Origin: a virus
Reading direction: 5' to 3' (one strand)
Virus record (IMG/VR): IMGVR_UViG_3300028549_001826
Length of the DNA stretch: 64,000 nucleotides
Made by a program: the position numbers and the translations under genes. The notes beneath the pieces were generated by a model, which saw only the letters and a list, made by a program, of their open reading frames with translations, was not told where the DNA came from and ran no database searches. Position 1 is the first letter of the stretch. Each line of letters begins with the position of its first letter. Below, in pieces: positions 1,306-57,807 of the stretch.

Positions 1306-2222
1306 AATATATAAAACAGCAAGGATTAGGTCATAAAGTAGATAGATTATATATACATTGGGATATTACAACGCAATGTGAATATAAATGTTCTTATTGT
1401 TATGCTCGAAAAGAATATGAAGATAAATGGAATAGACCAGGCATATGGAAAAAACAATTAAATGTTATTGATGCTTTAAAAGAAAGTACTCTACCTATAT
1501 TTTTAGGACTACTTGGTGGAGAACCAACATCTCATTATAAATATTTTGAACTATTGGATAATCTTGAACAGATAATATTAGTAAACAATGATTCAAGATT
1601 ATATATTACTACAAATGGTAATAAAACAAATGAATTCTTTTTGAAACATAAAAAAGTTAATAAACAATTTTATGTTTTGTTTAGTCTCCATCCTGAGTAT
1701 GTTGATGATACAACTTTTAACCAATTCAAAAATAATATTAGAATAATGCTTGAAAAAGGATATAGAGTAAAAGTTAATGTAATGCTGCATCCATCGAAAC
1801 AGTATTGGGGATTTCTTAGAACTGCTATATTAAGTCTAAACACTTTAGATATAGAAGTTCATCCTCATTATATTTATTCAGATGCTCACAATAGTGTTTT
1901 ATATTCTAAGGATTTTTATGAATTTTTTGAAGAAGCAATTAAAACAAAAGAACCTGAATTTATATTTGAAACAGATGATGATATTTATCTTTTAACTGAT
2001 CAAGATATATTTAAAAACAAATATAATAAATTTAAAGATTGGAATTGTTGGAACAATAATTATGAAATAGATTTGGATTGTAGAATTAATCAATTTTGTT
2101 TTGAAGACAAAAAAGATATAGCTTTGGATTATTTTAAAAATATATCAAGCATTGTTTCAAAAAAATGCCCACATGAGTATTGTAGTTGTGATGGTTTGCT
2201 AAAAATTAAAAAGGAAAAATAA
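1293..2222 (+). CDS. Radical SAM protein with C-terminal Cys (twitch/SPASM-like) module
   Basis: CEYKCSYC, LLGGEP and TTNG; C-terminal CWNN..DCRINQFC..CPHEYCSC. Confidence 0.9.
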   Translation: MESIEYIKQQGLGHKVDRLYIHWDITTQCEYKCSYCYARKEYEDKWNRPGIWKKQLNVIDALKESTLPIFLGLLGGEPTSHYKYFELLDNLEQIILVNNDSRLYITTNGNKTNEFFLKHKKVNKQFYVLFSLHPEYVDDTTFNQFKNNIRIMLEKGYRVKVNVMLHPSKQYWGFLRTAILSLNTLDIEVHPHYIYSDAHNSVLYSKDFYEFFEEAIKTKEPEFIFETDDDIYLLTDQDIFKNKYNKFKDWNCWNNNYEIDLDCRINQFCFEDKKDIALDYFKNISSIVSKKCPHEYCSCDGLLKIKKEK

Positions 2223-3166
2223 TGCATAGTATAGATAGACTTGATATGAAAGTTGAAACATTAATATGTGATCACCATTTTATGTTTGAAATAACAAGAC
2301 AATGCAATATGAGTTGTTCATATTGTTATAAAGATAATAACACTAAAATACCTGATAATAATAAAATAGAATTTTATATGTTTATTAGAAAGATTACAAA
2401 ATTATTAGAAGCTCATCCAAATAAAACTTTTGAAGTTGATTTATTAGGAGGAGAACCAAGTATATCACAATATGCAGTCGAGTATTTTAATAAGTTAATA
2501 ACATTATCAACTATACATAATAATTTAAAATGGATTACCATGACTACTAATGGTCAAGAATTTTTATATAATCATGAAAATCTTTTAAAAACAAATAAAT
2601 TTAAAATTGAAATAACATACCATAACTCTTTGAAAAATATAGACAAATTTATAGAAAATCTTATTAAATATAAAACGAGTTATAATAATGTTATTTTAAC
2701 ATTAAATCTTTTTCCAAAAGGTTTTAATCTTGATAAAATATTGAGAGTGTTATATGTTTGTAAAGAATATGATATTATTGTTACAGTAATGAGTATATTT
2801 TCAGACACAACTATAACCTATTTAGATGAGAATATTTATAAGCCTATTTTTGATTTTATAAATGCTAATAATATGATCAATGATAAAGTAACAGATCAAT
2901 ATGCTTACAAAACAAAAGATTATATTAGAAGAATTCCAACTCGTTGCAAATTAAAAACATTTACTATACTATTTGACGGCACTATTGTATCATCATGTGG
3001 TTATAAATTAAAAGATAAATTAAATATAAAATACAATGAGTATCCTTTTGATGAAGAAATATTATGCAACGCTTCTATTTGTCAAGGAGCGAGTGGTTAT
3101 AATCAGTATTTATTATCTCAAAAAGATTTTAAAGAAGATGAGAAAAATGAGAAAAATAATGCATAA
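2222..3166 (+). CDS. Radical SAM protein with C-terminal Cys module
   Basis: CNMSCSYC, LLGGEP and TTNG; C-terminal CKL..DGTIVSSCG..CNASIC. TAATG overlap with the previous gene. Confidence 0.9.
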   Translation: MHSIDRLDMKVETLICDHHFMFEITRQCNMSCSYCYKDNNTKIPDNNKIEFYMFIRKITKLLEAHPNKTFEVDLLGGEPSISQYAVEYFNKLITLSTIHNNLKWITMTTNGQEFLYNHENLLKTNKFKIEITYHNSLKNIDKFIENLIKYKTSYNNVILTLNLFPKGFNLDKILRVLYVCKEYDIIVTVMSIFSDTTITYLDENIYKPIFDFINANNMINDKVTDQYAYKTKDYIRRIPTRCKLKTFTILFDGTIVSSCGYKLKDKLNIKYNEYPFDEEILCNASICQGASGYNQYLLSQKDFKEDEKNEKNNA

Positions 3167-4136
3167 AATTAAATTAAAACATTCATATGAAATAATGCAA
3201 AATGATAATAAATTGATATTTGGTGCAGAGTATGATTATCAAATAACAATTAGGATAACAGAATTATGTAATATTAAATGCGAGTACTGTGAAGTTAATA
3301 AAGGGAAACCTTACAAATACGATGATATTATAAGGTCTATTACGTTATTAAATAAATTTTTTGATGAAAACAATTTTAATAAAGTCTTATTTTATTTTCA
3401 TGGGGGTGAACCAACTACTCACCCAAAATTATTAGATATTTTAAAATATATCAAAACTAGTCGAGAAAATAATATAATAGAACTTCAGACAAATTTATTA
3501 TCATCCGAATCTTTTCTAAAACAATATTTGAAACACATTGACTTGTTAAGTATATCATATCACTATATGGAATTAGTTAGAGTTAATAAATTAGAATTAT
3601 TTATGAATAATATAAATTATATTGTATCAAATAATTATTACATTGATAAATTAGATATAATGTTAGAAAATGTTTTATATGAACATATAGATATATTTCA
3701 TAATACTATAGAACATTTATTAAAATTACCAAACATAATTAATAGTGAAATGATTTATTTTTACAGTAATTATGATTATAATAATGAAACATCTAAAAAA
3801 CATTTAGAATTTTATAAAAAATATAATAAAACAGAACAATTGTATAAAATTGATGGTGTTGTTTATTCTACTAATGAATTATTTGGTAGAGGGCTAGATT
3901 GTGTTGGTAGTAGATGTGATGCTGGTAAAACTTCTATAATTATGAACGGGAATGGTGATGTTTTTAAATGTGGACAACATTTAATGGAATATTTTCTTAA
4001 CAATAAAGGAAAACCTTTTATAAATATTATCGAAAATGGTTTTAAATCTTTAAATATTTTATATAAAATAGGCACTCGATGCGTATGGGATTATTGTTGT
4101 GGAGATTTTTATTTAAATAAAAATATTAAAGGCTAA
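3159..4136 (+). CDS. Radical SAM protein with C-terminal Cys module
   Basis: CNIKCEYC, FHGGEP and QTN; C-terminal CDAG..NGDVFKCG..CVWDYCC. Start placed at ATG 3159, overlapping the previous stop. Confidence 0.9.
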   Translation: MHKIKLKHSYEIMQNDNKLIFGAEYDYQITIRITELCNIKCEYCEVNKGKPYKYDDIIRSITLLNKFFDENNFNKVLFYFHGGEPTTHPKLLDILKYIKTSRENNIIELQTNLLSSESFLKQYLKHIDLLSISYHYMELVRVNKLELFMNNINYIVSNNYYIDKLDIMLENVLYEHIDIFHNTIEHLLKLPNIINSEMIYFYSNYDYNNETSKKHLEFYKKYNKTEQLYKIDGVVYSTNELFGRGLDCVGSRCDAGKTSIIMNGNGDVFKCGQHLMEYFLNNKGKPFINIIENGFKSLNILYKIGTRCVWDYCCGDFYLNKNIKG

Positions 4137-15726: not shown

Positions 15727-15869
15727 AAAATAGATTACACATATTTTAAAAATATCGGTGCTAAATTTTAATCTAAAAAATTATCATTTAGTTAACAAAT
15801 ATACATTGCATGATTAATTTATTTAAAAATTTAATCATATTTAATCACAAATTTAAAAGGAAAATACAA

Positions 15870-16802
15870 ATGAATCCATTAGAAAATTTAGGAAAGTTTT
15901 TAGACAATAATACTCCTCAGTCACCTGTTTCTAAATCAGCATCTGCTTTAGATGTTTTAAAGATCTTATCAAAAACAAGAAAAACAGAAGTTAGATTACC
16001 AGTGCTAAGAGTTAATGCTATAGTTTCTCCATTCATAGGAGCAGAAGATTTATATATGCAAACATTAAAAGTATCAGGAGCTTCGTTTCACAGATATGTT
16101 GATGAATTACTTTTTAAACAAACTGAATTTATGGGTATAGTATTCTCAGACTTTAATGATTTTATTACAAATATTTCTCCAATAGATAAACAAGTTCTTA
16201 TTGTTGGTTTATTGCAAGCAACATTTACAGAATTACCTGAGAAAGTTATAACTTGTCCAAAATGTGGTCAACCTGATAGTTATAAATTTAAACCCGAAGA
16301 ACTTATACATGACGATTCTTATTTAAAAGAATGGGATAAAGATGAAGATGTTGCTGATTTTGAAATTTCATCTAAAATTACAGATAACATAGAAGTTGTG
16401 TATCAAATGCCAACTGAAGCTAAAAAATTAGAAGTATTAAATTATACATCCTCTTCACAAATGAGAAATAATCTTGAAAAACATAACGAAGTGTTTAGTT
16501 TACTAGATCTTATGTGTATTTATATTAAGAGAATAATTATTACTCCTGAAGATAAAACACAACAAGTTATAATATTAGAAGATCTTATGGAAGACATTAT
16601 TCCAACTGTTAAAGGTATGCCGTTGGATTTACAAACTCTATTAATAGCGGATCCAACTATAGATGAGTTTACGGTATTTAATCCTTATTATTATTTTAAT
16701 ATTCAATGTAGTGTACCAACATGTTCTCATCAATTCAAATGGGATGAAGTTAAGCCTGAACAAGACTTTTTTCGTAAAGCGTTATCTATATACAACAGTT
16801 GA
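15870..16802 (+). CDS. Baseplate hub assembly/tail chaperone (T4 gp26-like)
   Basis: EVRLP..VSPF..EDL N-terminus, CPKCG zinc knuckle and C-terminal CSVPTC; AAGGA SD before ATG 15870. Confidence 0.65.
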   Translation: MNPLENLGKFLDNNTPQSPVSKSASALDVLKILSKTRKTEVRLPVLRVNAIVSPFIGAEDLYMQTLKVSGASFHRYVDELLFKQTEFMGIVFSDFNDFITNISPIDKQVLIVGLLQATFTELPEKVITCPKCGQPDSYKFKPEELIHDDSYLKEWDKDEDVADFEISSKITDNIEVVYQMPTEAKKLEVLNYTSSSQMRNNLEKHNEVFSLLDLMCIYIKRIIITPEDKTQQVIILEDLMEDIIPTVKGMPLDLQTLLIADPTIDEFTVFNPYYYFNIQCSVPTCSHQFKWDEVKPEQDFFRKALSIYNS

Positions 16803-16980
16803 AGAACATAATAGTAAAATTAAATACGATGTTTTAAGATTTGCTAACAATTCGATATATAATGAATTAAATTTATCATATACCGAATTGATGAGTTTAC
16901 CAATGTTTCTTATAGATGAATTTTATGATACATACAAATCAATGGCTGATAGTAAACGAAATACTGTAAAACATCTTTAA
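16744..16980 (+). CDS. T4 gp51-like small baseplate assembly protein (start uncertain)
   Basis: LSYTELMSLPMFLIDEFY resembles the gp51-type motif; lies in the +1 frame overlapping the gp26-like gene; no SD-backed start. Confidence 0.5.
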   Translation: MKLSLNKTFFVKRYLYTTVEEHNSKIKYDVLRFANNSIYNELNLSYTELMSLPMFLIDEFYDTYKSMADSKRNTVKHL

Positions 16981-56012: not shown

Positions 56013-56468
56013 TTAGAAATCCCAAGGAAATACAATCCAGGAATCATCAGTTATAGTGAATAAGCTGTAATCTACAGCACCGTGTCTTTTTTCAACAATA
56101 CAAAATGTTTTAAATTTCTCTAAATCAAAATGTTCTGCTAGTTCATATTTAAGTGTTTTAATAGTTAAACCAGTATCATATATATCATCAACTATTAAAA
56201 CTTTTTCAGCATTTTTAATTTTTTCTAAATCAAAATCATTAATAGAATCCAACTTAATAGAATGTTGTGTTCCACCTAAACAAGTATCTTCATAAGATTC
56301 GATTTTAACATTTACAATATCTTTGATATTTAATTTATATGCTAATAAACCAGCTGGCATTAAACCGCCTCTTGTTATACATATAATTAGATCGAAAACT
56401 TCATCTGTTTCAAAATGTTCAAATCTTTGTTTTACATCACTAAAATGTAATTTCATTTTATCAGCCAT
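56013..56468 (-). CDS. Purine (xanthine/hypoxanthine-guanine) phosphoribosyltransferase
   Basis: ICITRGGLMPA, VLIVDDIYDTGLT (PRPP loop) and WIVFPWD. Confidence 0.88.
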   Translation of the reverse strand: MADKMKLHFSDVKQRFEHFETDEVFDLIICITRGGLMPAGLLAYKLNIKDIVNVKIESYEDTCLGGTQHSIKLDSINDFDLEKIKNAEKVLIVDDIYDTGLTIKTLKYELAEHFDLEKFKTFCIVEKRHGAVDYSLFTITDDSWIVFPWDF

Positions 56469-56479
56469 AATAATTCCTT

Positions 56480-56971
56480 TTAAAATGTTGTTGGTCTAGC
56501 TATTGATCTAATAACTTGCATAAATCCAGTTTGTAAATTTAAAGTTCCAGTTGATAACCATTTACCATCTAAACCTAAATCATGAGCAGACATCTCTAAT
56601 TCAGAACAAAGTTCCCCAACTTTTACAGCTAGTTCCTTTGCTCTATTCATAAGATCTATCTCTTCTTGTGATAAATCTCTATAACCTTTAATCATCGTGT
56701 GTTGATCTTTCATATCAATTCCTTTTTTATTTAATGTTGCCCAAAAATTTGCCAATTTGAATAAATTTCTTTTGTTCGAATCTTCATAATATGTCCATAC
56801 ACCATCTGGAGCAACTAAACAACCATTTGATGTACCGTCTTCATTTCTAGATAAAGCTAAACCAAGGGGATGTAAAATATCAGTATTAATTTTCCAAATT
56901 AATCCTTTTTCGCTTAAGGTATTAAAATCAATACATCGTTTTTCATCTACTACTGTAGATGTAGCTTTCAT
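56480..56971 (-). CDS. acb2: Two-domain protein: small phage domain plus Acb2 anti-CBASS cyclic-nucleotide sponge (internal start at 56713)
   Basis: QHTMIKGYRDLSQEEIDLMNRAKE...WLSTG..LQTGFM..IRSIARPTTF closely matches Acb2 as I recall it; AAGGA-N6-ATG precedes this domain. Confidence 0.85.
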   Translation of the reverse strand: MKATSTVVDEKRCIDFNTLSEKGLIWKINTDILHPLGLALSRNEDGTSNGCLVAPDGVWTYYEDSNKRNLFKLANFWATLNKKGIDMKDQHTMIKGYRDLSQEEIDLMNRAKELAVKVGELCSELEMSAHDLGLDGKWLSTGTLNLQTGFMQVIRSIARPTTF

Positions 56972-57807
56972 AGCAAATCCCCACCTTTTGGAACTATAGT
57001 TCTTCCAATAAGTGCACCAGAGTTATCTGTACTCTCTTCATAATCTAATCTGATTTCAACACCAGGCACAAATGTTAAAGCTTCCGCAACTGCGAAACTA
57101 CCATCTGGATTTCTTTGTTGAGTTGTAACTTGTACAACACATCCAACACCAACATCCATTGCTTTTGTACTTTTCATCCAACCCTCATTCTCAGAAGATG
57201 CTTTTGAAATTAATTGAAATAAATCACCATTCCCAAAGAATTTTATATCTTTTACATTTTTTGTTGCCCCATTTGCATCCGTATTTCCTAATGTTTTACC
57301 CATTTTTGATCCTTGTTTATCTGATGAACTATTTTTAAAATCTTCGAAAAAACTTGGCTTCAATGAAATCACTGAAGCTTGATTATCTTCTATAATTACC
57401 AATTCGCATATACCATAATTAATAAATAATTTTTCTCTTACATTGCTATATTTTTGATCATTATTCAAACCATGTATAAATTCTAATAGATTTGTAATAT
57501 CAAATTGTTTTGAAACAAATCTCCAAATATATCTTTTAGAATCTTCTACTATCAAATTATTATTTATAAAAATCATAACATCATATGAATAATTTCCATT
57601 TTCATCTTCAGGATGAACTTTTGTTATAATTGCTGGTATATTATCTGATTCACCATCAGATAATGTGATTAATTGACCTTTTAAAAAATTAAATTTATCA
57701 TTAAACGATTTAATAACTATATCAATATTTCCAATATTTTTATTATAATTTTCTAAATCACAATTTCTTTCTAAAATTGATAATATACTAAATTTCTTTA
57801 CTAACAT
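56968..57807 (-). CDS. Two-domain hypothetical protein with conserved small C-terminal phage domain (internal start at 57303)
   Basis: GWMKSTKAM..GCVVQVTTQQRNPDGS..AEALTFVPG; AAGGA-N6-ATG at the domain boundary. Confidence 0.65.
   Translation of the reverse strand: MLVKKFSILSILERNCDLENYNKNIGNIDIVIKSFNDKFNFLKGQLITLSDGESDNIPAIITKVHPEDENGNYSYDVMIFINNNLIVEDSKRYIWRFVSKQFDITNLLEFIHGLNNDQKYSNVREKLFINYGICELVIIEDNQASVISLKPSFFEDFKNSSSDKQGSKMGKTLGNTDANGATKNVKDIKFFGNGDLFQLISKASSENEGWMKSTKAMDVGVGCVVQVTTQQRNPDGSFAVAEALTFVPGVEIRLDYEESTDNSGALIGRTIVPKGGDLL

Follow-up and report, generated by a model that had tools for sequence, protein, structure and literature searches.

The 64,000-nucleotide stretch of viral DNA that we analysed (the window) encodes a protein in which an Acb2 sponge domain is joined in frame to an upstream DUF7415 module. 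The fused ORF (56480..56971, minus strand) is a single open frame of 163 aa. Its N-terminal module (residues 1-86; 56714..56971, minus) belongs by profile matches to the DUF7415/phrog_3954 family, and its Acb2 domain (residues 87-163; 56480..56713, minus) has its own ATG at 56713-56711 and ends at the TAA stop at 56482-56480. This DUF7415-Acb2 fusion has not been described previously and is unique among the databases searched. We consider it probable that the fusion is real and recent, and that free Acb2 is still made from the internal start.

The C-terminal half is a genuine Acb2 family member by sequence, fold and pocket residues. The initial annotation, made from the letters alone, had assigned the last 77 aa to Acb2 and proposed a profile match as the test of that assignment. 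Both have held up: residues 87-163 score 48.2 bits against Pfam PF24729 (Acb2_Tad1_hairpin; cut-off 27) and the whole protein 45.6 bits, and phmmer matches these residues to the PaMx33 Acb2 chains 8h2j and 8ixz at E ~1e-14. In this half of the full-length AF2 model (pLDDT ~90), helices at 87-93, 102-132 and 136-158 form the short N-terminal helix and two long antiparallel helices that define the Acb2 fold. Foldseek places the model with the Acb2 structures 8h2j and 8h2x (E 4e-4, probability 1.0, 40-42% identity) and also with T4 Vs.4 (7uq2). The 163-aa ORF is longer than the ~70-95 aa of stand-alone Acb2 proteins, and a 77-aa product from it would need the internal start. Among 305 Acb2 proteins surveyed, 18 carry extensions of at least 40 aa, and in 4-5 of 18 N-terminally extended proteins the boundary has no start codon, which indicates that Acb2 fusions can be stable. 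In the same survey, the metagenomic Acb2 proteins P0127, P0008, P0154, P0179 and P0185 carry other, unrelated domains at the N-terminus, in one case a STAS-like DUF4325, and to judge from boundaries that offer no start codon some of these are true fusions.

In PaMx33 Acb2, Tyr11 stacks on the base and Lys26 makes salt bridges (PMC10312549), while Leu14 and Pro90 make hydrophobic contacts to the ligand (bioRxiv 10.1101/2025.08.24.671296). PaMx33 residues Y11, L14, K26 and P90 align with Y97, L100, K112 and P160 of the fused protein, and Y11 and K26 are invariant across 36 close Acb2 homologues. The Acb2 half would be expected to sequester cGAMP-type cyclic dinucleotides, such as 3'3'-cGAMP, and conservation of the cGAMP-pocket residues makes it a reasonable supposition that CBASS is present in the host; some Acb2 homologues target Thoeris instead (bioRxiv 10.1101/2025.08.24.671296). 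Two positions of the cA3 pocket are altered (R67 to K137 and T74 to L144). These positions are reported to vary among Acb2 homologues, and those in which one is missing do not bind trinucleotides (PMC10312549). With lysine and leucine at these sites, binding of cyclic trinucleotides by this half is doubtful. As the same positions vary in true Acb2 homologues, the changes would limit the ligand range and leave family membership unaffected.

Judged by its profile matches, the upstream part is a real DUF7415-type domain; the initial annotation had already treated it as a domain distinct from Acb2. Residues 1-86 match phrog_3954 at E 1e-25 and reach 23.7-25.3 bits against PF24187 (DUF7415), slightly below the cut-off of 27. 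The closest homologues (P0002, P0230 and P0232) are stand-alone proteins of 78-99 aa that share 64-70% identity with the module and carry PF24187. Conserved positions of the family include S20, G23, L24, I28, N29, H34, P35, G37, L38, D56 and W59, and the invariant residues I28, N29, H34 and L38 are all present in the module. Modelled alone by AF2 with 27 homologues (pLDDT 89.3, pTM 0.75), it opens with a short beta-hairpin, followed by two helices, another beta-hairpin and finally a long helix. Foldseek against the PDB returned no match to this fold below E 0.9, and the best VIA wide score was Z 3.9, to unrelated chains. Besides members of the same family, an Atlas shape search recovered only weak rows, among them a cluster whose label reads MazG-like with DUF7415; scores in the Atlas feature search were 0.83 or less and unusable. 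A search of NCBIfam gave no match, and our literature search found DUF7415 mentioned in no paper.

DUF7415 lies at the extreme C-terminal end of the protein in nearly all of 86 loci, mostly with fewer than 20 residues after it. Here 77 Acb2 residues follow the module, and given the usual C-terminal position such a C-terminal partner is atypical. Stand-alone DUF7415 proteins have 65-100 aa and include 86-aa proteins of T4-like Pseudotevenvirus and Karamvirus phages; otherwise the domain sits behind DUF5405, an Rv2179c-like 3'-5' exonuclease, HTH, zinc-ribbon or Lar-like segments, or other uncharacterised domains. Gene neighbours at 80 other DUF7415 loci from IMG/VR include Dam methylase, P2 gpA, tail protein X and DksA/TraR zinc fingers, with no known sponge among them and acb2 within 2.5 kb at none of the 80. 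We read DUF7415 as a promiscuous small end-module to which no role is assigned. On P2-like prophage contigs (L043:1886-2806, L063:2486-2920 and L037:2168-2671) the partners to which DUF7415 is fused are the Rv2179c-like 3'-5' exonuclease, a Lar-like restriction-alleviation zinc ribbon that scores at the cut-off, and DUF5405. Matches in Klebsiella and Citrobacter T4-like phages that span residues 14-115 of our protein were considered as a fused or adjacent pair and set aside, the downstream gene there encoding an unrelated membrane protein.

The full-length AF2 model (32 sequences; mean pLDDT 80.7, pTM 0.49) points to two well-folded domains whose packing against each other is not confident. 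A complex prediction with two Acb2 domains and the N-terminal module scored 0.00, which gives no verdict in either direction.

How the two halves meet can be read directly from the DNA. On the minus strand the junction is TTA AAT AAA AAA GGA ATT GAT ATG AAA GAT CAA, and no stop lies between the DUF7415 module and the Acb2 domain, just as first noticed. Likewise, a Shine-Dalgarno AAGGA (56720..56724, minus) does stand 6 nt 5' of the internal ATG at 56713. The junction comprises an A3 run (56731-56733), a T and an A6 run (56723..56728, minus; T6 on the plus strand). The alternative frames read ..H*IKKELI* and ..NIK*KRN* (asterisks are stops), with stops 0-4 codons from the junction: the +1 frame ends KKELI* at a TGA (56710..56712, minus) that overlaps the internal ATG as a latent ATGA junction, and the -1 frame ends ..NIK*. 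The internal ribosome-binding site, AAGGAATTGATATG, is nearly identical to that of the downstream phosphoribosyltransferase (PRTase) gene, AAGGAATTATTATG, whose ATG is at 56468. In-frame internal sites of the form AAGGA-N5-8-ATG number three in the ~18,900 codons of the window's long ORFs, and the ATG at 56713 corresponds to residue 1 of stand-alone Acb2 homologues; the rarity of the motif in the window, together with this coincidence, makes the internal start of acb2 more than chance. The fused ORF itself begins at an ATGA overlap (56968..56971, minus) with the stop of a 279-aa, Lockin-containing ORF, and its Shine-Dalgarno, AAGGTGGGG (56979..56988, minus), lies within the 3' end of that upstream ORF.

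The upstream neighbour repeats this architecture. The 279-aa ORF (56968..57807, minus) consists of a 168-aa module, which has its own Shine-Dalgarno and resembles a 200-aa stand-alone protein of contig L004, followed by a Lockin-family sponge domain in its last 111 aa. The Lockin assignment is based on a stand-alone 110-aa protein of contig L098, which has a precomputed match to PF26760 (Lockin) and is 76% identical to the domain over 111 aa; the domain also stands alone in Bacillus phages Flasso and phBC6A51. An internal AAGGA-N6-ATG, at 57303, is kept at the Lockin boundary, so that the Lockin and Acb2 boundaries account for two of the three in-frame internal AAGGA-ATG sites mentioned above. 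Downstream of acb2 lies the PRTase gene (56013..56468, minus; 151 aa, PF00156 E 3e-18), syntenic with relatives. The locus is a two-sponge counter-defence island of Lockin and Acb2, followed by the PRTase, just downstream of nrdAB. Two further features of the island may be recorded. Inside the 279-aa ORF, ~50 nt before the Lockin start, a terminator-like hairpin of 9 pairs followed by CAAGTTTTTT (57357-57378, minus) has the look of a leftover from the end of an earlier gene. The PRTase directly follows acb2 here as it does in L098 and L099, with 151 aa in the window and 216 aa in the closest relatives, a conserved association.

Relatives of the two halves indicate from what kind of arrangement the fused ORF arose. 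Comparison with homologues, recommended at the outset, showed that some relatives keep split genes, in which the stop is followed by a spacer of 4-11 nt in place of the ATGA coupling that had been envisaged. Split DUF7415-acb2 pairs occur in three AT-rich phage groups (L004-L007, L101/L102 and L103/L105/L106), where acb2 is a separate 74-aa gene directly downstream of P0002, P0232 and P0230; the post-stop spacers are 11, 9 and 4 nt, respectively (TAAAAAGGAAACTTATG, TAAAGGGATAAAATG and GGGAAATAATATTATG). One contig with a split pair also contains the terminal part of nrdA (76% identical) and the 200-aa homologue of the Lockin neighbour's N-terminal module, and thus comes from a related phage. 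Two of these contigs show additional genes around the pair: a NADAR-domain gene (PF08719; L004:1002-1526 and L005:370-894) directly 5' and an AstE/AspA-like gene 3', a layout that suggests a variable accessory island after nrdA.

The closest Acb2 comes from relatives of another kind. P0227, from the L098 contig group and present on contigs from at least four samples, has 77 aa, is 74% identical and starts MKDQH like the window's. Its contigs run nrdB, a 492-aa protein, a 32-aa protein, a 65-aa membrane protein, Lockin (110 aa, PF26760), acb2, PRTase and a 488-aa protein; Lockin stands alone and overlaps acb2 by ATGA, and DUF7415 is absent. The window's backbone corresponds: a 64-aa membrane protein (58011-57817), the two fused ORFs, the PRTase and a 468-aa ORF. 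In DNA alignment, homology to L098 resumes exactly at the internal ATG, and the Lockin end plus ATGAAAG of L098 also aligns at the first ATG of the fused ORF. Relative to this backbone (L098:1540-1600) the window is longer by 258 bases, or exactly 86 codons (56714-56971), flanked by a 7-bp direct repeat, ATGAAAG, with which each of the two ORFs begins. Many genes of this genome start with MK, and the repeat is for that reason no proof of mechanism. Because relatives have either a split pair or no DUF7415, and because the fused protein was found nowhere else, the fused state is derived and lineage-specific. The arrangement resembles a DUF7415 gene of the split-pair type placed before a P0227-type acb2, with the intervening stop gone. 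A first joint alignment of both halves had misplaced DUF7415 homologues onto Acb2 columns and was discarded in favour of a second.

A single base separates the present frame from a split pair in either of two ways. Shortening the A6 run by one A leads to ...LNKKELI*, where TGA and ATG overlap, and the coupled pair predicted for this change was confirmed as to frame. It is merely one of two equally simple one-base routes, since one A more in the preceding A3 run gives ...ATLK* and then a 13-nt spacer, and this end aligns with the ...NLLK* end of P0002. The L103-type DUF7415 protein has its end, ...SLNKGK*, in the frame that the window now shows, which makes the frame through the A-run plausible as native.

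Both halves in one protein were sought widely. Among the best 150 of 980 phmmer hits in 1.84 billion representatives, none has both halves; a fused protein would outscore all 150 listed. Word-indexed searches of 5.8 billion clusters, run at lengths close to the query's and below it, retrieved the window's own protein and otherwise matches to one half only. In no phage record is 80% of the fused-protein query covered, and a peptide-pattern scan for the whole protein found nothing in IMG/VR viral contigs and only two distant DUF7415 loci in metagenomes. Identical 163-aa sequences appear in the JGI/IMG and Logan collections, on two contigs in all, and these records may share the same reads. A literature search found no paper on N-terminal extensions of Acb2.

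The fused ORF had been proposed to represent a gene with two products, a phase-variable switch or a sequencing indel. Like the first of these proposals, the reading that we favour is a real fusion with possibly two products; an indel is possible, and a switch is argued against. An indel of sequencing or assembly in the A-run, which we regard as unlikely although clearly worth weighing, would mean that the true phage has separate genes for a DUF7415 protein of ~81-88 aa and a 77-aa Acb2. The junction TTAAATAAAAAAGG is entirely homopolymer, and a single base gained or lost restores a stop in either alternative frame, with one restored reading ending where P0002 ends in the alignment (...ATLK* with ...NLLK*). 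Base composition deprives the restored stops of their force: at 25.6% GC a nearby off-frame stop is expected after any shift and carries no weight. The window holds 190 homopolymers of at least 6 bases, yet its long ORFs (1687, 973, 854, 817, 814 and 784 aa) are intact and bear no sign of homopolymer error, which argues that the platform is not error-prone at such runs. An artefact would also have to strike twice. The neighbouring Lockin ORF has the same architecture, and two independent errors within 840 bases are unlikely. Against a real fusion count the fact that the fused ORF is known from a single sequence, unique among billions of proteins, the C-terminal partner, which is unusual for DUF7415, and the perfectly kept internal Shine-Dalgarno and ATG, undecayed as for truly separate genes; the occurrence of the same protein in two collections speaks the other way. 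An 86-aa domain only 10 residues before Y11 might, moreover, hinder dinucleotide binding. The domain identities, the residues, the anatomy of the junction, the split genes of relatives and the uniqueness of the fusion are results; to these the favoured reading, of a real fusion, adds by inference a correct DNA sequence, synthesis of both products and binding of the ligand. A programmed or phase-variable switch, in which slippage of ribosome, RNA polymerase or replication on the A6 run toggles fused and split forms, seems very improbable. The run does sit at the gene junction, and since both shifted frames stop 2-4 codons past it, slippage would free the N-terminal module. However, the zero frame is AAA AAA GGA after a T and not the slippery A_AAA_AAG, the sole hairpin is weak (~40 nt downstream, -11.8 kcal/mol, z -2.5), and the relatives' junctions (GGGAAATAA and TAAAGGG) have no such run, which is thus not conserved. 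An A6 is also short compared with the homopolymer runs known to support useful slippage rates.

A further question is whether the fusion was selected because DUF7415 is a working partner of Acb2, for instance as a lid, an adaptor or one more sponge. Three related groups that differ in Acb2 subtype all keep the DUF7415-acb2 pair, the neighbouring Lockin sponge is likewise extended, and sponge-sponge fusions are known and have exposed new sponge families (bioRxiv 10.1101/2025.07.12.664507). We nevertheless hold such a partnership to be improbable, given the 80 other DUF7415 loci, where acb2 is never within 2.5 kb and the neighbours (Dam methylase, P2 gpA, tail X and so on) include no known sponge. 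Furthermore, DUF7415 is a promiscuous end-module that elsewhere is attached to exonuclease, DUF5405, Lar-like or HTH proteins, the closest relative of the Acb2 half does without it, and the full-length model, with its pTM of 0.49, offers no confident inter-domain packing. It is tempting to go further and speculate that both sponges, Lockin and Acb2, come by design in two isoforms, a long one into which an accessory module is read through and a short, free one from the retained internal start, and that DUF7415 is a new counter-defence module, acting on the Acb2 hexamer by modifying, tethering or complementing it; this, too, we consider a long shot.

Under the favoured reading of a real and recent fusion, we propose a model where DUF7415 and acb2 were ancestrally two tightly coupled genes, as in relatives, and the stop between them was lost through what amounts to the gain or loss of a single base in the A-rich junction, leaving one continuous frame. 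Ribosomes ending the Lockin ORF would restart at the overlapping ATGA and produce the 163-aa tethered form, while the untouched internal Shine-Dalgarno and ATG most likely still yield the normal 77-aa Acb2. The Acb2 part should form the usual hexamer and, free or mixed with the tethered form, would sequester CBASS cyclic dinucleotides. Two protomers contribute their N-terminal regions to the dinucleotide pocket of Acb2 (PMC10312549), and the DUF7415 module would consequently sit at the pocket entrance. Functionally, the fused protein is probably close to ordinary Acb2.

Acb2 is already well known, and the window's gene therefore adds little as a sponge; the fusion is a minor, perhaps recent variant of a known counter-defence gene. 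If real, it is the first DUF7415-Acb2 protein and, with the extended Lockin, an example of how counter-defence islands may evolve by reading accessory genes into sponge genes. If an indel artefact, what is left is an ordinary accessory block of Lockin, DUF7415, acb2 and PRTase. DUF7415 is widespread in T4-like and P2-like phages and has no assigned function or fold. Fusion to sponges has revealed new sponge families before (bioRxiv 10.1101/2025.07.12.664507), and this precedent, taken with the conserved DUF7415-acb2 pair, makes DUF7415 an inexpensive candidate to test. The chief value of the locus is as a pointer to DUF7415 and to a Lockin and Acb2 island with in-frame upstream modules.

Elsewhere in the window, two other places drew our attention. 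Plus-strand ORFs 15810-16802 and 16663-16980 overlap near a T6 run at 16761 (16740-16810), and tblastn found no phage homologues of either. At 2222-4136 (plus), consecutive ORFs of 314 aa and ~330 aa contain CxxxCxxC motifs typical of radical-SAM enzymes. A candidate frameshift at 3036-3166, where the ORFs overlap by 131 nt, vanishes with a later ATG that overlaps the stop of the first ORF.

Compared with known systems, the Acb2 half has the same helical-hairpin fold as Acb2 of PaMx33 (gp26; PDB 8H2J, 8H2X and 8IXZ) and T4 Vs.4 (7UQ2), and shares with the PaMx33 protein the N-terminal motif MxxQHxxIKGYRDLSQEEIDLMN. The window's protein differs from PaMx33 Acb2 in its extra 86-aa N-terminal DUF7415 module, in an inter-helix loop 16 residues shorter and in the altered cA3-pocket residues (R67 to K, T74 to L). 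The Lockin-acb2-PRTase operon of L098, L099, L100 and a 12.2 kb contig from JGI and NCBI has the same backbone order downstream of nrdB, with small membrane protein, Lockin, acb2, PRTase and ~480-aa protein in common, Acb2 and Lockin identities of 74% and 76%, and a shared junction of Lockin stop and ATGAAAG. Unlike the window, these relatives are without DUF7415 or the 168-aa module, and both of their sponges are stand-alone genes. The DUF7415-acb2 pairs of L004-L007, L101/L102 and L103/L105/L106 show the same order and linkage, and their DUF7415 proteins are 64-70% identical to the window's module. There, however, a stop and a spacer of 4-11 nt separate two distinct genes in place of the fused ORF, and the Acb2 is of another subtype (MENQH..., 74 aa, ~47% identity to the window's).

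Tad1, which shares PF24729, also has an N-terminal domain before a C-terminal helical hairpin, as the fused protein does. The N-terminal domain of Tad1 is a beta-sheet domain, whereas the window's module is mainly helical with two short beta-hairpins. No Tad1 chain was among the PDB sequence matches (E up to 10) or the Foldseek lists, an absence that excludes no family; as far as these tools can tell, the fused protein is not Tad1-like. Parallels exist in the sponge-sponge fusions, Tad2-Acb4 and Sequestin-Tad2/Acb4 (bioRxiv 10.1101/2025.07.12.664507). These have been seen tens of times and the DUF7415-Acb2 fusion once, and, unlike theirs, the window's partner is no known sponge, has no recognisable fold and leaves an internal start in place. 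The principle is nonetheless the same, in that a small homo-oligomeric sponge is likewise joined to a small phage module.
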